DNA of 64,000 bases from Escherichia coli (GCF_050920415.1 NZ_CP169309.1), one strand, 5' to 3'. Counted from the stretch's first letter, positions 9,158-58,159 are shown. The notes: generated from the sequence alone by a model not told the origin. A program made the numbers and translations.

Positions 9158-10203
9158 TGAGCAGAAAAAATAAAAAAGTGCGCATGAGTTCACGCATTGA
9201 TCTCGCTGATGCGCTCAGGAAAGAATCATCGCTCAGTGCATTCACATTTGATGGTCCTTATCGCCTGACCGGGCATGACCTGCTGGACAATATGTACTGT
9301 GCTGATAACGGGCGGTGGTATGAAACCCCGGTGGACTGGTACGGTCTGGCAAGAGCCGCCCGGCAAACGTCCTGGCATCAGTCTGCGCTTTACTTTAAGC
9401 GCAATGTATTGCTCGGTTGCTACATCCCGCACCCGCTGCTTTCCCGGCAGGATTTCTCGGCGCTGGCGCTGGACTGGTTTGTGTTCGGTAACGCATTCCT
9501 TGAGCTTCGAAGCAATATGCTCGGCGAACCGCTTAAATTACGGCACGCCCTGGCGAAATACATGCGACGCGGAAGCGATCTTGAATCATGGTGGTATGTG
9601 CAGGATGGCAAGGATGCGTTTCAGTTTCGCCCAGGCAAAGTGTGCCACCTGATGAATCCGGACATTAACCAGGAAATCTACGGCATGCCGGAATATCTCG
9701 GCGCATTACTCTCGGCCAGCCTGTCTCATTCGGCGGACATGTTCAGAAAACTGTATTACGACAACGGATCCCACGCCGGGTGCATCATCTACATCGGTGC
9801 AGCGCAGGTAAACCGCGAAAGCATGGACTCCCTGAAAGAAACGCTACAGGGTGCGCGTGGTGGTGGTGCGTTTAAAAACGTGCTCATTCATGCGCCCAAC
9901 GGGGGCAAAGAGGGGGTGCAAATTTTGCCGTTCCAGCAGATCACCGCAAAGGATGAGTTCATGAATGTTAAGGCGGCATCCCGTGATGATGTGCTGGCTG
10001 CGCACCGCGTTCCGCCGCAACTGATGGGGGCGATGCCGGGTGAAAAAAGTGCGTTTGGTGATGTGGAGAAGGCCGCGCGGGTTTACGCAATTAACGAGCT
10101 GATGCCCGTCATGGAGGCCATGAAGCATATCAATGACTGGCTTGGCGAAGAGGTGCTCCGCTTTAACCCTTACGCACTGCTGGACACCCAGCCCACATCC
10201 TGA
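9157..10203 (+). CDS. portal protein Q
   Basis: 348-aa ORF directly downstream of P, start overlapping P stop; P2 gpQ-like size. Confidence 0.8.
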   Translation: MSRKNKKVRMSSRIDLADALRKESSLSAFTFDGPYRLTGHDLLDNMYCADNGRWYETPVDWYGLARAARQTSWHQSALYFKRNVLLGCYIPHPLLSRQDFSALALDWFVFGNAFLELRSNMLGEPLKLRHALAKYMRRGSDLESWWYVQDGKDAFQFRPGKVCHLMNPDINQEIYGMPEYLGALLSASLSHSADMFRKLYYDNGSHAGCIIYIGAAQVNRESMDSLKETLQGARGGGAFKNVLIHAPNGGKEGVQILPFQQITAKDEFMNVKAASRDDVLAAHRVPPQLMGAMPGEKSAFGDVEKAARVYAINELMPVMEAMKHINDWLGEEVLRFNPYALLDTQPTS

Positions 10204-10694
10204 CGCGCTTCGCTTGTCTGCTGCTTCGCCGGGGCATAAAAAATTTATGCCCCGACTCTCCAGCTCCTGTATCAGTCAGATAATTTCACGACGCCTTCCA
10301 GTTTATCGCCACTATCGACAGTCAGACTCTTACGCAATCCCACTGCGCTGACTGCATGTTCTCGCCGCCTCAGTGCGATTTTGACGGCCTTATCTGCCAC
10401 CCCGTCAAATCAAAAGCCCTCACGTCTTTTTCACGCTCAGCGTGAGAAATACAGCCATTCTGTTGTGTCGCTGCGACATCGTTCAGGGGATGCTATTTAC
10501 CCCCTGAAACGCGGGCTGTTCCCCCGTCACCTGCGCGTAGAAAAAGCGCGTTTTTTTGTGCACGCACGGATCCTTGACGGATCCAGCCGCCACGCGGGCC
10601 GGAAGGGCAAAAAGTCGTTCAAAAAAATTGTGCAAATTTGTGCACTATTGTGCATTGAAATAAACGCCCTGGAAGAGGGCGTTTTGGCTCATTT
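10204..10694. other. non-coding region in the position of P2 cos / packaging site
   Basis: About 490 bp without credible ORF between portal Q and the accessory operon; contains three TGTGCA repeats (10631-10659) and a bidirectional hairpin cgccctggaagagggcg with flanking T/A runs. Cohesive-end sequence itself not identified. Confidence 0.35.
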
Positions 10695-10955
10695 CTATAG
10701 CTTTGATGCAGGCTGGGCTAGATGTAAGGGTTGGACATACCAGCCTTTTGATAACCAACTCTCTGCAACATCTTTACTCCTTGTTATTGCTGGTATTCCG
10801 ATGCCGTTATTTACATGCATCCATGCTACTGGCTCTGCTTCCAGCGATGCCAGTGCAATTTCATAAGCACGGCGTTCAATATTGTCTCGAACGTCCAGGC
10901 TGCCGATGCGCTCTTTGATTTCTTTAATCAGTTCTTTGTCGGTGAACGTTGTCAT
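10695..10955 (-). CDS. hypothetical protein (accessory operon, last gene)
   Basis: 86-aa ORF, no recognisable domain. Confidence 0.45.
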   Translation of the reverse strand: MTTFTDKELIKEIKERIGSLDVRDNIERRAYEIALASLEAEPVAWMHVNNGIGIPAITRSKDVAESWLSKGWYVQPLHLAQPASKL

Positions 10956-10965
10956 GTGTTAGTCC

Positions 10966-11229
10966 TTATCCTGCTGTGCTTTCAACTGATGAGGGGAACA
11001 AAATCTTTTCATCAAATCCGGCATTCATATCATGGACAGCAACACACCAATCCATCGACGAACGATTATCAAGAGCCTCCATGATTTCATCCATGCGGCG
11101 TAGGTCATACAGGTAAATGTTTTTATCGCCAATGGTGTAAAAACCAATTTTTTTCGGTGATGGACAGCGATCAAGAACGTCCTGTAATTCGTTCAACCAT
11201 GCCTGTTCTTTTTTTGTCAACGTTGCCAT
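10966..11229 (-). CDS. hypothetical protein (accessory operon)
   Basis: 87-aa product from internal Met MATLTKKEQAW; start trimmed to avoid overlap with upstream gene. Confidence 0.4.
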   Translation of the reverse strand: MATLTKKEQAWLNELQDVLDRCPSPKKIGFYTIGDKNIYLYDLRRMDEIMEALDNRSSMDWCVAVHDMNAGFDEKILFPSSVESTAG

Positions 11230-11230
11230 A

Positions 11231-11449
11231 TCAGTTTTCCTTATACGGATTAATTTTATTGTGCAATGTGTTGAACGACGCCCATACCACGTCGTTATAC
11301 AATTCAATAACTGGCTCAATTATTTTCCCGATTGCCCAGATAAAAATTAGCGGGGATATCGGTATCATCAACACGATAAACAGAATGAGAAACAGAAATT
11401 CTATTGCTCTACTCTTTCGCGGATAGTTTTTCCTGAATAGTGTAGGCAC
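11231..11449 (-). CDS. small membrane protein (accessory operon)
   Basis: 72 aa, GTG start preceded by AAGGAG; hydrophobic core FLFLILFIVLMIPISPLIFIWAIG; AT-rich. Confidence 0.45.
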   Translation of the reverse strand: MPTLFRKNYPRKSRAIEFLFLILFIVLMIPISPLIFIWAIGKIIEPVIELYNDVVWASFNTLHNKINPYKEN

Positions 11450-11450
11450 C

Positions 11451-11645
11451 TCACTCTCCTTTAATGCGAAAGTGGTTTTTCCAGCGGTTTTGCGCCGCGC
11501 TGGGCTTTTTGCAAAAACCGCAATCCATCATCCCGTAATATTTCATCAACCCCATTCGTCGGTTGCTGAGTCTCACCCACTGCCATACGCCTGGATCGTT
11601 TCTGCGAACTAACAGAATCTTTGCTTTACGGTTGTTGGTTGCCAT
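11451..11645 (-). CDS. small basic protein (accessory operon)
   Basis: 64 aa from ATG at 11645, preceded by AAGGGAGG Shine-Dalgarno. Confidence 0.45.
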   Translation of the reverse strand: MATNNRKAKILLVRRNDPGVWQWVRLSNRRMGLMKYYGMMDCGFCKKPSAAQNRWKNHFRIKGE

Positions 11646-11961
11646 ATCCCCCTCCCTTGATACCAATATTTACAACATGGCAAGCCTCTTTGAGCACCCA
11701 GTCAACAGCGTCTTTCCATGCTCCGGTTTCGGCTGGCGGATTCTCACGCTTTACCAGTTCATAGAAACGTACTGCTCTAACCAGTCCATCTGACGGTTTT
11801 GCCTGTAGTGCAGCCTGAGCTATGCGGTATGCCTGGAGTATACGGGCGTCGTTGATATCCATTCCGAACGGAATTTCTGATGATTGTGATTCTGCATCTT
11901 CAAGCCTGGCAATTTCTTTACGTAAGAAGTATTTCAACTCTTGTTTTTGTTTTCTGTTCAT
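11626..11961 (-). CDS. hypothetical protein (accessory operon)
   Basis: 111 aa; ATGA start/stop overlap with upstream zinc-finger gene; AAGGGA Shine-Dalgarno. Confidence 0.5.
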
Positions 11962-12290
11962 GCGTTTTTTCCCTTTTTGTCTGTCACTTCTCTCCTGATA
12001 ATTTCATTGCACAAATCCACGCACTCATTGCAGATGTAAACAGACGGTCCAGCAATCACCTTTGTGACTTCGTACTGGGATTTATTGCAGAAGCTGCAAT
12101 AAATCGTCTCCTCACCTGAAGTCCATGTTTTGCTGGTTTCGCCAGACATCAGTTGTTTGAGGTCTTTTTCACGACGAAGAACTATCTGGCCACATTCAGC
12201 TATTTTTTGGATGTTGACATTTTCTTCTTTCGCCAGCGCTTCCATCCGCTCAATCAGTCGCTGCGCTTTTTCTCTGTCAATGTGTTGCAT
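11958..12290 (-). CDS. small protein with C-terminal ClpX-type C4 zinc-finger domain
   Basis: Segment [40 protein letters not shown] closely matches the recalled N-terminal zinc-binding domain of ClpX ([40 protein letters not shown]); no AAA+ domain follows. AAGGGGGA Shine-Dalgarno. Confidence 0.6.
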
Positions 12291-12353
12291 TGTGTCCCCC
12301 TTGTTTATGCTCCCGGGTTAAAGTCATCAGGGCGGATGCGCCCTGATGTTGTG

Positions 12354-12665
12354 TTATTCGGGAAATAACGCCCGGATATTTCCGGCCATCTGACTGGTTA
12401 TCTGTGCGGCTGATACTGGCTGTGACGCGGGGCGTTCTGTCCTGGGTTGTGTCACTGATAACGCCTCATCATCAGCCCATGCAGCCAGTCGGTAAGCCTC
12501 TGCCGGATTCATTTTCAGTAGTGCCAGCCCGGCCAGAAAAGCCACGCGTTGACCACTTTTGCGGGCTTCTGGTGTAAGGCTGTCCAGCCAGGCGCATGCT
12601 TCGCCTTCGTTCTTGACGGCGGCGGGCTTCAGATAGAAACTTATCCGTCTGGTTGGTGTCGTCAT
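12354..12665 (-). CDS. ParR-like centromere-binding protein (ribbon-helix-helix)
   Basis: 103 aa; RRISFYLKP...WLDSL...FLAGLALL...NIRALFPE resembles recalled plasmid R1 ParR (RRTIAFKLNP...TLDSI...LTAGLALY...ILRSLFPKE); directly downstream of the ParM-like gene with AAGGAG Shine-Dalgarno. Confidence 0.6.
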   Translation of the reverse strand: MTTPTRRISFYLKPAAVKNEGEACAWLDSLTPEARKSGQRVAFLAGLALLKMNPAEAYRLAAWADDEALSVTQPRTERPASQPVSAAQITSQMAGNIRALFPE

Positions 12666-12669
12666 TGGC

Positions 12670-13629
12670 TTACTCCTTGTCCATTGCGTACAGCCCATTA
12701 ACCAGAGCAAACTGTGGCACCCCGTCCGCGATGAAAGTCGCATTAACTCCGCAGGCTTCGCGGATAGCGGGTGCCACAATCTCCGCCCCGCCACCGACAA
12801 CCATCACCCGCCCGTAACCCGAAAAACCCGCCAGCGCGCGGATCACGCGTTGTTTCAGTGTTTCTTCCTTTTCACGAATAACCGCCATCAGGCTGGCGTA
12901 ATGCGCGTCATTGTGGATGTGCTGGCGCAGCCAGGCTTCATCATGGCGATGTTCAATAATGGTATTGGCGATGTGGTGACTGGTGCGCATACCGTTAGTG
13001 GCCATCACCGACAGCACGGCATCGGCCATCAGTGAAACACCTACGTGTGGATCGCAAAACACCTGGCTGATACCTGCCAGTTGTCCCTGAACCTTTGCCA
13101 CATCCAGCGTGGTTCCGCCCAAATCCACAATCAGCAGGGATTCAAACGGACTCATGTCAGCCAGTGCCTTAAAGCCTGCCGGAATGGATTCAGGCATAAC
13201 CCGCACGTTACGGATAGTGAATGCCTCACCGTTCTGGTACTCCACCGGGCGCATAACGTTCGCTTTTTTGCGGTTGATGTTGGCCATGTCCGGCTGTGCG
13301 TTTGTGTCGAAATACTCGCTCAGTGGCAGGGTGACAACCACATCCACCTCCTGTGGCGTGATGCCTGATTTGACCAGCGCGTGATGAATGGCAATGACAT
13401 TCACATCGCTGTATTGGTATTGCGTGTCGGTCGTCTGGACAAAGCGATCGCTGACCGGATCAAAACCATAGCGCACGCCATCAAGCATGTAGTTCGCGGG
13501 CTGCGTGCCACCGAACGGCGCAGACCATTCCGACTTGAAGCTGTTCGGGCTGATGGCGTTGCGGCGTTCGCCGTTCTCAGTCCATGCCAGCTTGATGTTG
13601 GTGGAGCCGTCGTCGATACAAATTTTCAT
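12670..13629 (-). CDS. ParM/StbA-like actin-fold segregation ATPase
   Basis: 319 aa with the ParM nucleotide-binding motifs: MKICIDDGSTNIKLAW (phosphate 1), IVDLGGTTLDV (connect/adenosine), VMVVGGGAEI (phosphate 2). Confidence 0.8.
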   Translation of the reverse strand: MKICIDDGSTNIKLAWTENGERRNAISPNSFKSEWSAPFGGTQPANYMLDGVRYGFDPVSDRFVQTTDTQYQYSDVNVIAIHHALVKSGITPQEVDVVVTLPLSEYFDTNAQPDMANINRKKANVMRPVEYQNGEAFTIRNVRVMPESIPAGFKALADMSPFESLLIVDLGGTTLDVAKVQGQLAGISQVFCDPHVGVSLMADAVLSVMATNGMRTSHHIANTIIEHRHDEAWLRQHIHNDAHYASLMAVIREKEETLKQRVIRALAGFSGYGRVMVVGGGAEIVAPAIREACGVNATFIADGVPQFALVNGLYAMDKE

Positions 13630-13660
13630 GTCGCTTTTCCTTATGTTGATTAATTAATCG

Positions 13661-13760
13661 TTTACGGGATTCTGAAATCCCGTTTTTGCCTGCTTTGTGC
13701 GCGCTTCATATATCACTGCGCGTTTTTTGCTCATTTACGGGATTCGTGAGTCCCGTTTCT
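13661..13760. repeat. two direct copies of a 27-bp hairpin-containing repeat upstream of the ParM-like gene
   Basis: TTTACGGGATTCTGAAATCCCGTTTTT (13661-13687) and TTTACGGGATTCGTGAGTCCCGTTTCT (13734-13760), 22/27 identical, each an ACGGGA/TCCCGT inverted repeat; the second lies inside the 3' end of gene A. Confidence 0.5.
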
Positions 13761-16528
13761 GTCTGTTTTTTGTTTCCGCTGGTCAGGCCACCCCGCAGCA
13801 GGTCTGCTTTGCGGCTGGCGCGTTCAGTGGTTTCACTGATTCTCTGTGCGTGCTCTGCGTCGCGGATGGCGCGCAGCATGTCAGAAAGCACAGTAACGGG
13901 TGTTTTCATGGTGTTCTGGTCCTGCTGAAGTGTGGATGCCAGGCGTGCGGCGGCTTCAGGGTCTGATGCCCCCAGCTGTGCCAGATAGCTGGCGACCGGG
14001 TTATGGCGGATCTCCGTGCTGCTTACGCCATGATTACGGCTCAGGCGCTGCCAGAGCTGCGTGATTCGGCTGTCCGGGCGGGTATCCGGTTTGCGTACAA
14101 TTTCAAATCCCTGCGGTGCAATGATGCTGCCGTCAACGTACAGACTGCCGCCCCGTAACAGGTGCTGCATCTGTTGTTCACCGATATGCAGGCCGAGAGA
14201 TTCAGCAGACTCCCGCCATTCTTTAGCGAGTAATTCGTGGTTATCAGGCAAAGGCCGCTGCTGTTTGCGGCTCTGTGTCCAGCTCTGCATTTCATCACTG
14301 CTGTTTTTTGCCTGTTTGTCACGAAGCGAACGCATCAGCGCCCGGCGTTCGTGCCGTTTCAGTGAGCGCATCCATTCGTTCACTTCAACGCCGTCAGGGA
14401 GCTGCGGCCACGGTGCTGGCCGTTCTTCCGGCTGTTCTGTCCCGTTGTTGTCCGTTTCCTGTGCACGGGGACAGTTATTGCCACGAGTCCAAGGGGCGGC
14501 AGGGCCGCCCTGAAGGTCAAAACCATTTTCGTGGGCGTTGTCTCCCGGTTCTGGTTTACGTCTTACCAGCTTCCAGTTATCCGGATGCGTGCACACACGG
14601 GAGGATTCCCCGATGAGTGGTGACCAGATCCCGTAAATCTGTACGCTCTGTTCGCCGTAATCGTTCAGCTCATCTGCGAGGTCGTAGGCGGTGCGAATCA
14701 GGTAGTCCTTGCGTGGAACAAGCACGCCACCCTGTTTTTCAATGTAGGTGGCAAAACACCCGGCATCGGCGGCAGCGAGTACCGCATCCATTGCATCATC
14801 TTTCAGCCGTTGCGGGCCTTCCGGATTGCGTGCCATCTGGCTGGCAAGGCGGCGCAGTTCACGCCACACCTGACGGGAGGGGATGCCAAAGAACTGGAAC
14901 TGACGGACCCGGTGAAGGCGCGCCCAGCCGATGGCGCGCTCCACGCTCTCGGCCATTGATTTTCCGGTTTCGTGGTCAACGCGTGGCTTGCCCGTTTTCG
15001 GGTCGATGCCATCCACGGCGCGGCTGTCCAGGTTCTTTCCGATGTAGGTGGCGATGTAGCTGGTTGGTGTGCCTTTTGAGCCGTCGACATACTCCGCCTT
15101 AAAACGCGGAGTTATGTCATCGCCCAGCTCGTGGCGGTCCTCCTGAATGGCAATATCGCAGACGTGGGACACGATGGTTTCAATCTCGTCCGGATGTGCA
15201 AAGACCATCATATGCCAGTGCACAGTGCCGTCATGGTGAGGCTCCACCGTGCGGATGCCATACCAGCGCAGGCCGTCGCGGTTCAGTTTTTTGCGGACCG
15301 CCGCAAAAAACGTGTTAACCAGGTAATCGCTGGAGTCGCGCATGGTGGCCCCGTTCCATTTGGGGTTCGGATGACCGTTCTCCGTTGTTGCGTGGTATTT
15401 TGACGGGCAGGTGACGGTCAGAAACACCGCTCTGTCGCCACGGGCTTCGGCCAGAAGTTCCAGTCCCTTCATGGTGGCCATCATTTCTGCCTTACGGTGA
15501 ACCGGGTTACTTACTCCCGCGTAATACACCGTCTCGAGATCAATCGTGAACCCGTCTTCATTTTCCAGCATGAAACTTTTCAGGAAATCGCGTGTTTTCT
15601 CGCGCTGTGCGCGAAACTCGCTTAACGCGTCCTGGCTCAGATAGGGGGATGTTTTTCTGGAAACCAGACAGGCGGCGCGGAGTTGTTCTTCCCGCCACTC
15701 ACAACGTAACAGCCACAGTTTGCGTTTCCACCATTCCGCACAGGTCAAGCGAAGGATTGCGCCCGGCAGCAGCTCCGTGTCCGGTTCGTTCCTCCGGTCT
15801 TTGTCTGTTGTCAGTGCGTCATAATGTGGAGGCATGGCGTGCAGGTGTAACGCCATGCGGGCCAGCATCTGATAAGCCTTCAGGGTTACATCCATGGTCA
15901 GCTCGCCATCAGTCGCGCCAAAGCCATCGCAGAGTTTTTCGAAGGTGCTGCTGAACATCGCCGCCGTCATGGTGGCCAGCGTCTGTATCTGGTGTTTGTT
16001 GAGCTGCGGCAGGTAAAGCAAATCGTCCAGGCGTTCGCGTCCGGCAAGGGAGCGATAACCCGGTGTCAGCCAGCGGTGGTCGGTGCGGTCCAGACGTTCG
16101 AATATTTTGCGCAGGGTTCCGCACGCGTAGCGTTCAGCCTGCCAGCTCTTTTTGCCTTTCCGGCGATCGGCTTCCTGTTTTTTGCGCAGGAAGGAGAGGT
16201 GGCGAATAAGCGGATCGCGCAGATAGGACGGCAGCAGGCGCAGCGAGGCCATGGCTTCATCCACCGCGCCACGTGCCTGTTTTCTGGCGTCTCCTGCCAG
16301 TGTGATGGTTTTGTCCTGTTTTTCCTGTGCGTCCAGGCTTTTATTAATCAGGTTGCCCAGCGGCGTGGCGGAGAACGCCGCATCAGCCATTTCCTGGCGG
16401 CGCTCGTTCTCTGCCCGGTAGGCATCCAGCCAGGAGGAAAGCGCGGATTCAGGAGCGGGGATCCCCGTTCCTTCACGCCCCACTGCGTGGCGCGGTTGTT
16501 GCCAGTCCCTGATGTACTCTGCCGTCAT
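13706..16528 (-). CDS. replication initiation protein A (rolling-circle nicking endonuclease, P2 gpA-like)
   Basis: 940 aa; HUH-type motif region GTVHWHMMVF and tyrosine motif TSYIATYIGK; position between early genes and accessory region. Confidence 0.8.
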   Translation of the reverse strand: MTAEYIRDWQQPRHAVGREGTGIPAPESALSSWLDAYRAENERRQEMADAAFSATPLGNLINKSLDAQEKQDKTITLAGDARKQARGAVDEAMASLRLLPSYLRDPLIRHLSFLRKKQEADRRKGKKSWQAERYACGTLRKIFERLDRTDHRWLTPGYRSLAGRERLDDLLYLPQLNKHQIQTLATMTAAMFSSTFEKLCDGFGATDGELTMDVTLKAYQMLARMALHLHAMPPHYDALTTDKDRRNEPDTELLPGAILRLTCAEWWKRKLWLLRCEWREEQLRAACLVSRKTSPYLSQDALSEFRAQREKTRDFLKSFMLENEDGFTIDLETVYYAGVSNPVHRKAEMMATMKGLELLAEARGDRAVFLTVTCPSKYHATTENGHPNPKWNGATMRDSSDYLVNTFFAAVRKKLNRDGLRWYGIRTVEPHHDGTVHWHMMVFAHPDEIETIVSHVCDIAIQEDRHELGDDITPRFKAEYVDGSKGTPTSYIATYIGKNLDSRAVDGIDPKTGKPRVDHETGKSMAESVERAIGWARLHRVRQFQFFGIPSRQVWRELRRLASQMARNPEGPQRLKDDAMDAVLAAADAGCFATYIEKQGGVLVPRKDYLIRTAYDLADELNDYGEQSVQIYGIWSPLIGESSRVCTHPDNWKLVRRKPEPGDNAHENGFDLQGGPAAPWTRGNNCPRAQETDNNGTEQPEERPAPWPQLPDGVEVNEWMRSLKRHERRALMRSLRDKQAKNSSDEMQSWTQSRKQQRPLPDNHELLAKEWRESAESLGLHIGEQQMQHLLRGGSLYVDGSIIAPQGFEIVRKPDTRPDSRITQLWQRLSRNHGVSSTEIRHNPVASYLAQLGASDPEAAARLASTLQQDQNTMKTPVTVLSDMLRAIRDAEHAQRISETTERASRKADLLRGGLTSGNKKQTETGLTNPVNEQKTRSDI

Positions 16529-16534
16529 AGTGAT

Positions 16535-16900
16535 TTACTTCGTCATGCCATTCAGGGTGTCGCGGCAGACTGTAGCCAGCCGCTGAATTTCCAGCACGGT
16601 GTCTTCTGTGTCGGCATGGCGATGTGTGATGCGGATGCTGTCGGCAATCACATCGACGATTGCAGAGGATGGGCGCTGGTAAATGCCAATAACGGACGGG
16701 GTGCCACCTTCAATGCGGTAAAGCCTGTAATTTCCCTCGTGGCTGTCAATCATGTAGCGACCATCAATAACAATCTTTCCGTCAGCGAGCTGCGGTACAG
16801 GCAGGGATTTCAGGTACATGTCATAACGATCACGCACGCGAGCGGCAAGATCACGTTCTGTGTTGAGCAGGTATTCAAGAAAGTCGTTGGCGAGAATCAT
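16535..16900 (-). CDS. hypothetical early protein
   Basis: 121-aa ORF immediately upstream of A on the same strand. Confidence 0.45.
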   Translation of the reverse strand: MILANDFLEYLLNTERDLAARVRDRYDMYLKSLPVPQLADGKIVIDGRYMIDSHEGNYRLYRIEGGTPSVIGIYQRPSSAIVDVIADSIRITHRHADTEDTVLEIQRLATVCRDTLNGMTK

Positions 16901-17041
16901 TGCGGCAATCCTCTTGTTACAGATGTGCGAAGGCCTCCCGCCGCAAGGTGCAGGAAAGGCCCGGAACAGGAATTAATGGAGTTTGTTTTGCAGCCGGATG
17001 AGCTGCTGAAGCCCGACGTGGTTTCCGGCAGTTGGAGGTGC

Positions 17042-17287
17042 TCATGCTCTGATTTCCCTCAGTAGCTGGTTGAACATCTGGGTTAGTGGGTTGCTACACC
17101 CAAACGGCATCGGGTTTACCTGATAGGAAAAGCGACCGCCTGTTTTGCGCTCTTTTCTTATGACTGAACCGCTGCGCCAGAGACGGCGTAGCTCCGCATT
17201 AATGGTTGTGGTTGGTGTATTCAGTGCTGCGGCGATTTCTCCACCGCTACAACCCGGATTGGCAGCGATGTAGTCCAGAATGGTCAT
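17042..17287 (-). CDS. small putative winged-helix DNA-binding protein
   Basis: 81 aa; pattern ILDYIAANPGCSGGEIAAALN...INAELRRLWRSG suggests a winged helix. Confidence 0.45.
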   Translation of the reverse strand: MTILDYIAANPGCSGGEIAAALNTPTTTINAELRRLWRSGSVIRKERKTGGRFSYQVNPMPFGCSNPLTQMFNQLLREIRA

Positions 17288-17487
17288 CTGCGTGACTCCT
17301 GTACCTGTCTGATAAGATTCACCTGCACCACGTTGGTGGCGCAGAAGTAAGTGCCGTCAGTGAGATAGATGTGATGTGCATCCTTTTCTGAACGGTGTTT
17401 GTCGATTGTGGTAATCAGGCGTTCGTCAACTTCGTATTCACGTCCTCTGGAGGTGAAACGAACGACAGGAAAATGCTTAATTGCCAT
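17284..17487 (-). CDS. hypothetical early protein
   Basis: 67 aa from ATG at 17487 preceded by AAGGAGG; a longer upstream extension to 17538 is possible. Confidence 0.4.
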   Translation of the reverse strand: MAIKHFPVVRFTSRGREYEVDERLITTIDKHRSEKDAHHIYLTDGTYFCATNVVQVNLIRQVQESRR

Positions 17488-17683
17488 TACGCCTCCTTGG
17501 CGTGTGCGAATACCTCCGCGAATGCGGATTGTTTTCACATTTTCTTATTTAACCTGGGGTCTTATTTGCGCGGTTATTCTTCAGTGAAAAAGCGTTCAAT
17601 CTTTTTTACTGAATTAATAATTCGCATAATCCCAATGGCGCAGACCACCGAAATAATCAGAACAAGCCATGAGATAAATATAC

Positions 17684-19109: not shown

Positions 19110-19514
19110 ATGAAAAATGATATTGGTCAGCGGTTGCGTGAGGAAAGGGAAAGATTGGGACTTAGTCAAGTTGCCATGAGCGACATTGGTGGAGTCAAAA
19201 AGCTAACTCAGCTTAGATATGAGAAAGGAGATAGCTTTCCTGATGCTGCGTATTTGGCAGCGCTGTCTCGTTTTGGCCTTGATGTTCAGTATGTTGTGTT
19301 GGGAATTCACTCACCTGAAACTTATAACGATGATGAGCAGGAGTTGATTACTCGCTTTCGAGCAGCTTCGTTAGATGTGAAAAACGCGGTGATTGGGGCT
19401 TTAAAAGGTGCGATCAGTGAAAAGGAAACTCAGCCATCAGGACGTGAGTTAAATATTTCTGGTGGTAATAACCGTATTGCTGGTCGTGACTATAACGAAA
19501 CTAAGGGTAGGTGA
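19110..19514 (+). CDS. CI-like immunity repressor, HTH XRE family
   Basis: 134 aa; N-terminal IGQRLREERERLGLSQVAMSDIGGVKKLTQLRYEKG is a classic XRE helix-turn-helix; transcribed toward the integrase as in 186. Confidence 0.75.
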   Translation: MKNDIGQRLREERERLGLSQVAMSDIGGVKKLTQLRYEKGDSFPDAAYLAALSRFGLDVQYVVLGIHSPETYNDDEQELITRFRAASLDVKNAVIGALKGAISEKETQPSGRELNISGGNNRIAGRDYNETKGR

Positions 19515-19529
19515 TAGTAGGGAGGTGAC

Positions 19530-20180
19530 ATGGCCGTCAACTCAAACGGTTCAAACAATCGCGTTGCTGGGCGTGATTTTCACGAAAAGAATATTCAGAT
19601 AGAGCGATATGATGGTTCTCATACCGTCAATATCGCAATCCCTTCGAATAATGATGATGACGATCGCCCTTTGCTTAAGGCTCAGCGTAAGGAGCTAAAT
19701 AGTTTGGTTGCTGCTATTGCAGAAGCTAGCAATACTGAAGCGTTTATTATTTGGCAAAAAGTACATGCTGAGATTGGTGTAGCTGGTATTGATGATATGA
19801 CAGTAAATCAATATAAAACAGCGGAGAGTTTTCTGCATGCAATGCTTGAGCGATGTAAAGATCATGATGCCTGTAAGGCTCTTGTAAGTTTATTACTACG
19901 TAACAGTGAAGACTGTGGACTTCGACAAAAACTTCTGCGGTATTGCCATATCAATTTCGGTACAGGACGTTTAAACGATCTTACTCGTTCTCAGTTACAG
20001 TCTGCATTGTCGTGGTTAGAGCAACAATCGGCATCAAGCCACACAGAGAGTTCGACCTTACCAGAAGTCCGACTTCGTGCTTCAGAATTAATCCGACTTT
20101 ATCCAAAAGAAATAATATTCTTTATCTGCGTAGGGGGTTTGGTAGGCGGTGTCATTTCTAGGGTGCTTTTTAATTTGTAA
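19530..20180 (+). CDS. cargo protein, C-terminally membrane-anchored, unknown function
   Basis: 216 aa, GGGAGG Shine-Dalgarno; C-terminal TM helix IIFFICVGGLVGGVISRVLF; N-terminus repeats a peptide motif found at the repressor C-terminus. Confidence 0.55.
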   Translation: MAVNSNGSNNRVAGRDFHEKNIQIERYDGSHTVNIAIPSNNDDDDRPLLKAQRKELNSLVAAIAEASNTEAFIIWQKVHAEIGVAGIDDMTVNQYKTAESFLHAMLERCKDHDACKALVSLLLRNSEDCGLRQKLLRYCHINFGTGRLNDLTRSQLQSALSWLEQQSASSHTESSTLPEVRLRASELIRLYPKEIIFFICVGGLVGGVISRVLFNL

Positions 20181-20209
20181 TCTTACTTGAGCTAAATTGA
20201 GGTAATGAT

Positions 20210-20557
20210 ATGAAAGTAAAAAAGGTTCAACTATTAGTTACTTTTTTATCTATGTTTTCTTTTTCCGCCGTCGCAATGCCTTTTAAAACTATTGAACGTG
20301 AGAGTTTCAATGGGGTATGGCCATTTAATACTGATGAGGTTCAATTACAGTGTCTTGATGGTAATCCTTATGTGATGAATTTTGACGATAATAAGTTATA
20401 TGCACTTACAGGTTTGGCTCGAATAAAAGGTAAAACATTTGGTGCGTTACCGTTAGATAACAATAATCCATTTTGGCTAGATAATGATGCCGCCCCAGGG
20501 TTAAAAAAGAGTCTGGGGGATGTCACTAAGGCTGCATTTGATTTATGTGATAAGTAA
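20210..20557 (+). CDS. cargo protein, secreted/periplasmic, unknown function
   Basis: 115 aa with signal peptide MKVKKVQLLVTFLSMFSFSAVA, no lipobox, two Cys in mature part; strongly AT-rich coding sequence. Confidence 0.6.
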   Translation: MKVKKVQLLVTFLSMFSFSAVAMPFKTIERESFNGVWPFNTDEVQLQCLDGNPYVMNFDDNKLYALTGLARIKGKTFGALPLDNNNPFWLDNDAAPGLKKSLGDVTKAAFDLCDK

Positions 20558-20562
20558 CTAAA

Positions 20563-21564
20563 ATGTCGGTTCGTAAGATTCCATCAGGTAAATGGCTTTG
20601 CGAATGTTATCCCTACGGGGCATCGGGAAAACGCATTCGTAAACAGTTTGCGACAAAAAGTGAGGCGCTCTCTTATGAGCGCCGTTTAATGAATAGTAGA
20701 GTTGGAGACGAGTTTCAAGATGGTTCTGGTCCTCGTCTTTCTGAGTTGATTGCTCGTTGGTTTGAGATGTACGGTAAAACCTTGTCCTCTGGTGCAGAGC
20801 GCAAAGTCAAACTTGAGGCGATTTGTTCCAGGCTGGGAGATCCATTTGCTTCTCAGTTTGACAAAAATATGTTTGCTACTTATCGGGAAAGAAGGCTATC
20901 AGGAGAATGGAATCCCAAGGGGAAGAAAAAACTTAGTGAAGCAACCGTTAATCGCGAGCAGTCATATCTACATGCTGTTTTTGCCGAACTGAAGCGCCTT
21001 GGGGAGTGGTCTGGTGAAAACCCCCTGACTGGTATTCGCAAGTTTCGTGAGGAAGAAAAGGAACTGGCGTTTCTGTATGTAGATGAGATTGAACGCCTTC
21101 TGATTGCGTGTGATGAGTCACGGAATAAAGATTTGGGGGTTGTTGTCCGTATTGGGCTTGCGACTGGTGCTCGGTGGAGTGAAGCAGAAGGATTAAAGCA
21201 ATCTCAAGTACTGCCCGGTCGAATCACATTTGTTAAAACTAAAGGAAAGAAGAACCGCACTGTACCGATTTCACCTCAATTGCAGGCTATGCTTCCTAAA
21301 AAACGAGGAGCGCTATTTTCACCATGTTATGAGGCTTTTGACGCTGCAATTAAGAGAGCGAAGATCGAGCTTCCTGATGGGCAATTAACTCATGTGCTAC
21401 GTCACACGTTTGCCAGTCATTTTATGATGCGGGGCGGAAATATTCTTGTGTTGCAAAAAATACTGGGGCATAGCGATATAAAAATGACTATGCGTTATGC
21501 GCATTTTGCTCCAGGTCATTTAGAGGCTGCTGTTGAATTGAACCCTTTTGACAATAGAGGGTAA
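20563..21564 (+). CDS. int: prophage integrase (tyrosine recombinase)
   Basis: 333 aa; catalytic motifs HVLRHTFASHF and TMRYAH; last prophage gene before the tRNA fragment. Confidence 0.85.
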   Translation: MSVRKIPSGKWLCECYPYGASGKRIRKQFATKSEALSYERRLMNSRVGDEFQDGSGPRLSELIARWFEMYGKTLSSGAERKVKLEAICSRLGDPFASQFDKNMFATYRERRLSGEWNPKGKKKLSEATVNREQSYLHAVFAELKRLGEWSGENPLTGIRKFREEEKELAFLYVDEIERLLIACDESRNKDLGVVVRIGLATGARWSEAEGLKQSQVLPGRITFVKTKGKKNRTVPISPQLQAMLPKKRGALFSPCYEAFDAAIKRAKIELPDGQLTHVLRHTFASHFMMRGGNILVLQKILGHSDIKMTMRYAHFAPGHLEAAVELNPFDNRG

Positions 21565-55729: not shown

Positions 55730-58159
55730 ATGACATTAACAAGACGTGAATTTATTAAACACAGCGGTATTGCCGCTGGGGCGCTGGTGGTGACATCGGC
55801 TGCACCGTTACCTGCATGGGCAGAAGAGAAGGGCGGCAAAATCCTCACCGCAGGCCGTTGGGGAGCGATGAACGTAGAAGTGAAGGACGGCAAGATTGTT
55901 TCTTCGACAGGCGCGCTGGCGAAAACCATACCGAACTCCTTACAGTCTACGGCGGCTGATCAGGTACATACAACGGCGCGTATTCAGCATCCGATGGTGA
56001 GAAAAAGCTATCTCGATAATCCACTACAACCGGCGAAAGGTCGTGGCGAAGATACTTATGTACAGGTGAGCTGGGAACAAGCATTAAAACTTATTCATGA
56101 TCAACACGATCGCATTCGCAAAGCTAACGGACCATCGGCCATTTTTGCCGGATCTTACGGCTGGCGCTCTTCTGGCGTGTTACATAAAGCGCAAACCTTA
56201 CTGCAACGTTATATGAATCTTGCGGGCGGTTATTCAGGGCATAGCGGCGATTATTCAACCGGGGCGGCACAGGTGATCATGCCGCATGTGGTGGGTTCCG
56301 TGGAGGTGTATGAACAGCAGACCTCCTGGCCGCTGATTCTGGAAAACAGCCAGGTTGTGGTGCTGTGGGGGATGAACCCGCTGAATACCTTAAAAATTGC
56401 CTGGAGCAGTACCGATGAGCAAGGGCTGGAATACTTCCATCAGCTGAAAAAATCTGGCAAACCAGTGATTGCCATTGATCCTATCCGCTCCGAAACCATC
56501 GAATTCTTTGGCAATAATGCCACCTGGATCGCGCCGAATATGGGCACCGACGTGGCACTGATGTTAGGGATTGCACATACCCTGATGACACTAGGCAAAC
56601 ACGATAAAGTGTTCCTTGAAAAATACACCACCGGGTATCCGCAGTTTGAAGAGTATCTGACAGGTAAGAGCGATAAAACGCCGAAGAGCGCGGCCTGGGC
56701 GGCGGAAATTACTGGCGTAGCGGAAGCGCAGATAGTCAAACTCGCTGAACTGATGGCGGCAAATCGCACAATGCTGATGGCAGGCTGGGGAATTCAGCGC
56801 CAGCAATATGGTGAACAGAAACACTGGATGCTGGTGACGCTGGCGGCGATGTTAGGGCAGATTGGTACACCGGGCGGCGGGTTTGGTTTCTCTTATCATT
56901 ACTCAAACGGTGGCAACCCGACGCGTGTTGGCGGAGTGCTGCCGGAAATGTCTGCGGCGATTGCCGGACAGGCCAGCGAGGCCGCTGATGATGGCGGAAT
57001 GACGGCGATTCCTGTTGCCCGTATCGTCGATGCGCTGGAAAATCCTGGCGGCAAATATCAGCATAACGGTAAAGAACAAACGTATCCGAATATCAAAATG
57101 ATCTGGTGGGCGGGTGGCGGTAACTTTACCCATCACCAGGATACTAATCGTCTGATTAAAGCATGGCAGAAACCGGAGATGATCGTCGTTTCTGAATGCT
57201 ACTGGACCGCAGCTGCTAAACATGCAGATATCGTATTACCGATCACCACATCGTTTGAGCGCAATGACTTGACGATGACCGGTGATTACAGCAACCAGCA
57301 TATTGTACCGATGAAGCAGGCTGTCGCTGCGCAATTTGAAGCGCGTAACGATTTTGATGTGTTTGCCGATCTTGCTGAATTACTCAAACCTGGCGGAAAA
57401 GAGATCTATACCGAAGGTAGAGATGAAATGGCGTGGCTGAAATTTTTCTATGATGCCGCTCAGAAAGGTGCGCGTGCGCAACGCGTGACTATGCCGATGT
57501 TTAATGCTTTCTGGCAGCAAAATAAACTGATCGAAATGCGCCGCAGCGAGAAGAACGAACAGTACGTTCGTTATGCTGATTTCCGCGCCGATCCGGTGAA
57601 AAATGCGCTGGGTACGCCAAGCGGCAAAATTGAGATTTACTCCAAAACGCTGGAAAAATTTGGCTATAAGGATTGCCCGGCACACCCAACCTGGCTTGCG
57701 CCTGATGAGTGGAAAGGTTCCGCCGACGAGAAGCAGTTGCAGCTTCTGACCGCACATCCGGCACACCGTTTACACAGTCAGCTTAACTATGCGGAACTGC
57801 GTAAAAAATATGCGGTTGCCGATCGTGAACCGATCACTATTCACACCGAAGATGCTGCTCGCTTTGGTATTGCGAATGGCGATCTGGTGCGTGTCTGGAA
57901 CAAACGTGGTCAGATTCTGACAGGCGCGGTGGTGACTGACGGGATCAAAAAAGGCGTGGTATGCGTGCATGAAGGTGCATGGCCAGATCTGGAAAATGGC
58001 TTGTGTAAAAACGGCAGTGCGAACGTGTTAACGGCGGATATCCCCAGCTCTCAGCTGGCAAATGCCTGTGCCGGTAACTCTGCGCTGGTGTATATCGAAA
58101 AATATACGGGCAATGCACCGAAGTTAACGGCGTTTGATCAGCCAGCTGTTCAGGCATAA
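55730..58159 (+). CDS. torZ: TMAO/N-oxide reductase catalytic subunit TorZ (molybdopterin enzyme)
   Basis: 809 aa with twin-arginine signal [19 protein letters not shown]. Confidence 0.85.

Follow-up and report, generated by a model that had tools for sequence, protein, structure and literature searches.

A ParM-ParR cassette beside the replication operon of a P88-like Escherichia coli prophage, followed by mosaic cargo that includes a candidate ClpX N-domain mimic

What is encoded by the eight genes that lie between replication gene A and cos in a P2-like prophage of Escherichia coli, and do they form one system? We analysed 64,000 nucleotides of NZ_CP169309.1 (GCF_050920415.1), referred to as the window, in which eight co-oriented, tightly packed open reading frames (ORFs) occupy 10695-13629 on the minus strand (Table 1). 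The prophage is most closely related to P88 and its relatives (genus Xuanwuvirus of the P2 family, Peduoviridae). The first two genes, parM and parR, encode a ParM-like ATPase and a ParR-like adaptor; the six behind them are called g3 to g8. The initial annotation had read all eight as a single accessory operon. We consider it probable that the locus is instead a lineage-specific ParMR cassette, joined to the early replication operon and followed by six genes of mosaic cargo, and that ParMR and the g3 protein act early.

We used profile and structure-based searches on the products of the first two genes. The ParM sequence matched the Pfam family StbA_N (2.5e-82), the ParM C-terminal domain (2e-68) and the solved R1 ParM structure 1mwk (E 9e-93); in NCBIfam the ParM match was below threshold only. 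It is 47% identical to the ParM of R1-type plasmids (R1/NR1 ParMRC, also stbA/stbB), and all nucleotide-binding motifs, both phosphate-binding and adenosine (DDGSTNIK, DLGGTTLD, GGGAE), are intact. By these features it is a ParM/StbA-family actin-fold ATPase of the kind found in type II ParMRC systems. As in R1, the ParR gene lies directly downstream. Its product matched Plasmid_stab_B (Pfam, 6.5e-24) and had no match against PDB sequences. A ribbon-helix-helix-type N-terminus is followed by a variable linker and a C-terminal NIxxLFP tail, and the alignment with R1-type ParR covers the N-terminal DNA-binding domain and the terminal N-I-x-x-L-F-P, which corresponds to the N-x-x-x-L-[FI] tail of the R1 system. 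The type II layout of a DNA-binding N-terminus and a ParM-binding tail is thus predicted here too, although the protein (103 aa) is shorter than R1 ParR. In about 50 ParR alleles the N-terminus (MTTPTRRISFYLKP) and the tail were invariant and the linker was hypervariable; invariant ends around a variable linker are the pattern expected of a ParR adaptor. Judged by sequence, genes 1 and 2 are a genuine R1-type ParM and ParR adaptor pair.

Some ParR alleles differ sharply from one another (~55% identity; window 12354-12665, loci L008-L087), with the differences almost confined to the linker, and the parM beside them keeps ~98% nucleotide identity. The pattern points to recombination or diversifying change limited to the linker of ParR.

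The distribution of the pair sets it apart from ordinary hotspot cargo. Every one of the 80 IMG/VR loci retrieved carried parM, at 96-99% nucleotide identity, with the ParR ORF next to it wherever the contig continues, and parM-parR was present in 14/14 P88-like phage records. Among 50,697 phage records a homologue occurred only in P88-like phages (at least 96% amino-acid identity) and in the plasmid prophage D6 (48%). Complete E. coli genomes carried parMR in 1307 of 5426 cases (24%), which agrees with the report that about a quarter of P2-like phages have a putative partition system (Rousset et al. 2022, PMC9122126). Almost all of these places were chromosomal (1453 of 1455) and the window copy is integrated, unlike type II ParMRC systems, which are carried by extrachromosomal replicons. 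In a collection of 5.8 billion proteins the next-nearest ParMs (58-63% identity) came from Plesiomonas, Serratia and Hafnia, always in the order gpA-parM-parR-cargo-portal within a P2-like prophage, and plasmid ParMs were at most ~55% identical to the window ParM. Because the nearest relatives share the place next to gpA and the plasmid ParMs are more distant, ParMR after gpA is an old phage-specific lineage. One relative with the same gene A allele lacks parMR, and there the A stop codon is joined directly to Ea22-like cargo; the cassette is therefore a discrete module. From the records sampled, parMR is fixed within the P88-like lineage and is not variable hotspot cargo.

Within a few bases of the parR stop the loci cease to be homologous, and different hairpins or canonical terminators are found there depending on the allele. 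Most IMG/VR loci are without g3-g8 entirely, and the combinations seen included g3 with g4, g3 with g4 and g7, g3 alone, g4 alone, or none. Only five of the 5426 genomes held the full eight-gene set, and 71 held g3 and g4. The g5-g8 block was intact in 5 genomes and present as fragments in 1928, mostly in other prophages. g3-g8 therefore lie between gpA and gpQ/cos and differ among close phages, as hotspot cargo does, and parM-parR does not. The initial annotation had treated the whole interval as variable cargo, which holds for g3-g8 and fails for the cassette; its single eight-gene unit is not supported either, since g3-g8 assort independently. It had also matched the combination to no defence or exclusion system that it could name. 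The combination is not new, since loci of the form "StbA + Plasmid_stab_B + zf-C4_ClpX + hypothetical ..." are to be found in a supplementary table of Rousset et al. 2022 (PMC9122126). The eight-gene arrangement, a rare mosaic, has no importance of its own as a unit.

Three loci (L078, L075, L030) show a clean deletion of g3 (equivalent to 11958-12290) between short GAGAAAAAG-like repeats at either end of the gene, which leaves an eight-codon stub and an intact g4. It follows that g4 is independent of g3 despite their ATGA coupling.

That all eight ORFs are real coding sequences is supported by PHROG family matches for every protein (E 1e-27 to 1e-90) and by low ratios of nonsynonymous to synonymous polymorphism (pN/pS), pooled against related alleles: 0.03 for parM (72 alleles), 0.27 for parR and 0.07-0.32 for g3-g8. 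Purifying selection on parM is strong. A 99.1%-identical E. coli prophage has the same eight genes in its RefSeq PGAP annotation, and AGGA/GGAG-type Shine-Dalgarno sequences stand ahead of all eight starts. The minus-strand genes with tight junctions and strong Shine-Dalgarno sequences that the initial annotation described are thus borne out. One of its two ATGA overlaps, shared by g3 and g4 at 11961-11958, was confirmed in the sequence; the other, placed near 12665/12670, is instead a 4-nt gap between the parM TAA (12672-12670) and the parR ATG (12665), with no overlap. The g4 and g5 genes overlap by 20 nt, the gaps at g5/g6, g6/g7 and g7/g8 measure 1, 1 and 10 nt, and the 63 nt between parR and g3 include a 10-bp GC hairpin. 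Gene A, the last conserved gene of the early operon, is directly upstream of parM and forms the right flank, and the left flank consists of terminase P and portal Q on the plus strand. These P88-like flanks confirm the assignment to the gene A-cos (gpA-gpQ) interval of a P2-like prophage, and the description of that interval as a known cargo hotspot agrees with Rousset et al. 2022, who defined it and found it rich in single-gene defences (PMC9122126).

Table 1. Features of the gene A-cos interval and their positions in the window
Feature	Position	Strand	Evidence
Gene A (gpA, replication endonuclease, 940 aa)	13706..16528	-	ORF; annotation in near-identical records
Distal copy of 42-nt direct repeat, inside gene A 3' end	13731..13772	-	20-bp palindrome ACGGGACTCACGAATCCCGT at 13737-13756
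Proximal copy of 42-nt repeat, ~35 nt upstream of parM start	13658..13699	-	20-bp palindrome ACGGGATTTCAGAATCCCGT at 13664-13683
parM, actin-like segregation ATPase, 319 aa	12670..13629	-	Pfam, R1 ParM structure match, motifs
parR, adaptor protein, 103 aa	12354..12665	-	Pfam Plasmid_stab_B, R1-type ParR alignment
Perfect 10-bp GC hairpin after parR stop, without U-tract	12325..12348	-	-18.6 kcal/mol, z -3.9
g3, helical hairpin, linker and ClpX-type C4 zinc-binding domain, 110 aa	11958..12290	-	Pfam zf-C4_ClpX, AlphaFold2 (AF2)
g4, 111 aa	11626..11961	-	phrog_26213 and phrog_660, ~2e-27
g5, 64 aa, 3' part of 933W L0068	11451..11645	-	phrog_1380 1e-38
g6, 72 aa, GTG start, single-pass membrane protein, DUF4014 family	11231..11449	-	phrog_1832 6e-45
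g7, 87 aa, 933W L0066; small protein conserved across Enterobacterales	10966..11229	-	
g8, 86 aa, 5' part of 933W L0065	10695..10955	-	phrog_5117, phrog_660, phrog_60
Intrinsic terminator closing the gene string after g8 (7-bp GC stem, then UUUAUUU)	10657..10682	-	-14.8 kcal/mol, z -3.6

Among the cargo genes, g3 gave the clearest domain assignment. Its product matched zf-C4_ClpX (Pfam, 8.9e-18) at residues 64-99 of 110, and residues 61-102 are ~76% identical to residues 12-53 of E. coli ClpX. The four Cys and the equivalents of F16/I46 are invariant in the g3 family. In ClpX the hydrophobic F16/I46 patch binds lambda O, SspB and RssB, and degradation of lambda O requires the zinc-binding domain (ZBD) (PMC7804408). 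ClpX, an AAA+ unfoldase, combines the ZBD with an AAA+ module, whereas for g3 no such module was found by Pfam, NCBIfam (clpX at 50 bits against a cut-off of 371) or AF2. The AF2 model consists of an N-terminal 48-residue helical hairpin, a disordered linker and the ZBD, and nothing further; the phage-encoded protein is thus a ZBD fused to a hairpin. For g3, as for the ParM-like and ParR-like products, the Pfam profiles agreed with the initial domain calls. In other P2-like lineages of Salmonella and E. coli, which are without parMR, relatives at 42-54% identity follow closely behind gpA on the same strand. Further relatives occur in D6-like phage-plasmids. That this family is found repeatedly with P2-type replication operons points to a function on the phage side, and we infer that g3 is probably a decoy or mimic of the ClpX N-domain.

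Phage D6 (MF356679.1) carries homologues of both ParM (48%) and the g3 ClpX-ZBD (48%), ~20 kb apart at 57140-58090 and 78798-79082, so the same phage pools carry both families. Many unrelated phages, among Pseudomonas, Caulobacter and jumbo phage records, also have short stand-alone ClpX zinc-finger ORFs, which are often mis-annotated as "Clp protease ATP-binding subunit". Phage-encoded ZBD-only proteins may form a broad class; we found no paper on phage-encoded stand-alone ClpX ZBD proteins.

The remaining cargo genes resemble parts of lambdoid early regions. The C-terminal half of g4 is a module that also occurs in the larger PHROG families phrog_660 and phrog_250; since g8 and this half of g4 match different halves of phrog_660, they are shuffled protein modules. 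DNA matches to g4 in other E. coli prophages lie under genes with the annotation "ead/Ea22-like family protein". g8 is an N-terminal module common to larger lambdoid early-region proteins, and the record of 933W L0065 carries the note "similar to EaA protein of bacteriophage P22". Together g5-g8 are ~94% identical in nucleotide sequence to L0068-L0065 of Stx phage 933W and keep their order, g6 matching L0067 in both length and position. The 933W block is situated between exo and xis (the "ea" region), whereas here the genes follow a P2-type replication operon, and g5 and g8 are shortened relative to the 933W genes. One hydrophobic span (residues ~15-41, read from the sequence) makes g6 the one membrane protein that had been expected among the small products; its PHROG family, phrog_1832, is annotated "released from the phage upon host infection", as against DUF4014 in PGAP. 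Pfam gave no match for g4, g7 or g8, and a confident structure model of g7 had no structural neighbour. None of the eight proteins matched PADLOC (PADLOC-DB 2.0) at E <= 0.01, a lone g4 match (E 0.025) being at chance level, in keeping with the first impression that no known defence system was present. The locus shares with the old/tin cargo of P2 its place beside cos and, for g3-g8, the shuffled character, but it differs in having no domain or PADLOC match to validated defence systems and in the lineage-fixed parMR.

We next considered the DNA upstream of parM. Two copies of a 42-nt direct repeat, 73 bp apart, straddle the gene A stop codon, and each contains a 20-bp palindrome of the form ACGGGAyTnnnGAATCCCGT (CGGGA-N9-TCCCG). 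The palindrome pattern gave 4 matches, against 0.03 expected by chance. The palindrome and repeat elements are kept across E. coli loci, and phages of Plesiomonas and Hafnia have CGGGA-N9-11-CCC elements at the same two relative positions with 72-73 bp spacing, making three genera in all. The gene A C-terminus differs in Plesiomonas and Hafnia, and in Hafnia the distal element lies in another ORF, not in gene A. Because the arrangement is conserved in three genera, a minimal two-site parC is possible, and the palindrome pair is the best candidate for a ParR operator or minimal parC/centromere. The same conservation in Plesiomonas and Hafnia weakens the idea that the 42-nt repeats are a mere insertion scar. 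The site is unlike that of R1, where about ten 11-bp iterons surround the promoter: upstream of parM no R1-like iteron array and no 11-bp periodicity were found, and the 76-bp intergenic space and its surroundings offer two 20-bp palindromes only, in place of the promoter-enclosing parC array of type II ParMRC systems. By-eye comparison of the palindromes showed single changes, some of them G-U-compatible, and no compensatory pairs, so that covariation does not separate an RNA from a DNA element.

In IMG/VR locus L085 (equivalent to 13658-13772) exactly one 73-bp unit has been lost and a single palindrome is left, which is consistent with recombination between both repeat copies.

A sigma-70 promoter scan found no site before parM or g3, and gave a weak promoter-like site inside g4 (11912-11883). 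The sense-strand hairpins between gene A and g3 are without U-tracts. As gene A and parM have neither a sigma-70 promoter nor a sense-strand terminator between them, the simplest reading is that transcription runs through from the early operon. The hairpin behind parR lies where the conserved cassette gives way to the variable cargo, and could be an attenuator.

Taken as a mechanism, early action of ParMR and g3 would proceed as follows. After infection or induction the cluster would be read as part of the early operon, and in the lysogen it would stay silent. ParR would bind the palindromes on monomeric circles arising from gpA-driven rolling-circle replication, and ParM filaments would move or spread the phage circles, aiding efficient replication or packaging. 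The g3 protein would most likely be a decoy or a heterodimerising mimic of the ClpX N-domain, drawing ZBD-dependent substrates or adaptors (of the lambda-O, SspB, RssB type) away from ClpXP, and g4-g8 would be early-region modules of the lambdoid type. Like the relaxase TraI, gpA nicks DNA to begin rolling-circle synthesis. On that account the stimulation of TraI by R1 ParM and ParR (PMC4949242) is suggestive for P88-like phages. The nearest parallel in function is the corynebacterial prophage CGP3, in which AlpC and AlpA are induced early and the excised phage circle needs them to replicate efficiently (PMC4446434). There too an integrated prophage combines an actin-like ATPase with a co-transcribed DNA-binding adaptor (AlpC/AlpA/alpS). 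Host phylum and phage type are different, the likeness is drawn from the arrangement, and the P88-like function would have to be read across from it; the P88-like gene order and the lack of an own promoter are compatible with a role of the AlpAC type.

Several points weigh against this account. Early co-expression and the mechanistic steps are deduced from sequence signals, and the promoter scan recognises consensus sigma-70 sites only. A need for segregation in P2-type replication, or a benefit from it, is without support. The candidate cis site consists of two palindromes, compared with the iteron array of characterised ParMRC systems; the palindromes resemble plus-strand terminators; and the distal one is also kept in the relative without parMR, so the repeat could be a duplication scar. 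The ClpX-decoy idea is based solely on domain identity, and for g4-g8 there is no functional clue, given the lack of Pfam matches for g4, g7 and g8 and of a fold match for g7. A more specific version of the account is put forward only tentatively, as a possibility that we hold to be rather doubtful: an old, distinct ParMR clade would have been recruited into the P2-type rolling-circle module, positioning, separating or stimulating gpA-processed circles by means of a two-site minimal centromere, while the g3 mimic of the ClpX N-domain would reprogramme the substrate choice of ClpXP in early infection.

ParMR could instead keep the phage as an extrachromosomal, plasmid-like prophage or in a carrier state, as suggested by Rousset et al. 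2022 (PMC9122126). ParM and ParR are indeed bona fide plasmid-type partition proteins, and the only other phage with a homologue, D6, is a plasmid prophage. There is also one 34,461-bp circular "plasmid" record (L090; NZ_CP148288.1, 1-34461) that corresponds to an entire P88-like genome, closed at attP and including int, cox, A, parM, parR and the structural genes. This record represents either an episomal form or assembled excised phage DNA, and a single circular record could come from excised or induced phage. P2 replicates by a gpA-driven rolling circle, and expression of gpA is shut off by the immunity repressor, so that an immune cell would hold no replicon to partition. The near-exclusively chromosomal occurrence of the cassette weakens the plasmid-maintenance idea further, as does the window copy, which is integrated beside yecA-tyrP with its integrase intact, and we regard this explanation as unlikely.

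Two further explanations place the function in the lysogen. A new multi-gene anti-phage or exclusion system made up of all eight genes would suit a proven defence hotspot, the tight packing in one orientation and the lack of a match to known systems, which leaves room for novelty. The lack of co-occurrence makes it very unlikely: most loci have parMR but not g3-g8, g4 occurs without g3 and g3+g4 without g5-g8, relatives of g3 occur without parMR, and g5-g8 circulate independently in lambdoid early regions. The sigma-70 scan found no lysogen-type promoter either. Some of g3-g8 might, on the other hand, be individual lysogen-expressed exclusion or host-modulating "moron" genes that have nothing to do with ParMR, for example g6 in membrane exclusion and g3 in blocking phages that need ClpX, such as Mu, which does require it. 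Such a role would fit a hotspot in which single-gene defences abound, a small membrane protein such as g6, and the weak promoter-like site within g4. Yet PADLOC gave no match, no convincing promoter lies upstream of g3, and the homologues in Stx phages share their strand with exo, bet and gam and lie between exo and xis. The exo-xis region of lambda is part of the early leftward pL operon, and this operon is repressed in the lysogen. Independent morons seem improbable to us, if less so than a single eight-gene system. In the testing section of Rousset et al. 2022, no partition or ClpX-ZBD locus is named among the protective P2-hotspot systems (PMC9122126).

Elsewhere in the prophage, the intact integrase gene (20563-21564) is directly next to yecA-tyrP-ftnA of the E. 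coli chromosome. The segment that separates it from the early operon, 19110-20557 on the plus strand, encodes a helix-turn-helix repressor (134 aa, RstR/DicA-like) and two co-oriented ORFs, one of 216 aa with a weak Flk-like match and one of 115 aa without a family, at a GC content of ~0.41. There was no PADLOC match for the ORFs of this segment, which probably represents cargo of the repressor-int junction that is expressed in the lysogen. In the cos region, the portal gene is followed by a strong plus-strand terminator (10533-10551). An Rfam search over 9500-17500 gave a sole match, gyrA-RNA-like, at 10209-10262 on the minus strand just past the portal stop; at 22 bits against a gathering threshold of 45 (E 0.077) it is probably due to chance.

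The arrangement as such has already been catalogued. The P88 description does not mention the partition genes and, as far as we found, neither the recruitment of ParMR nor mimicry by g3 has been described experimentally. The main interest of the locus lies in the role of ParMR in integrating phages and in the ClpX-domain mimic. About a quarter of E. coli genomes hold ParMR inside an integrated P2-like prophage. If ParMR does act on replicating circles, the precedent of CGP3 AlpAC would extend to a very common group of enterobacterial phages, and a minimal two-site ParR target would become available for study. A free, phage-encoded ClpX N-domain would offer the virus a simple means of interfering with host proteolysis.

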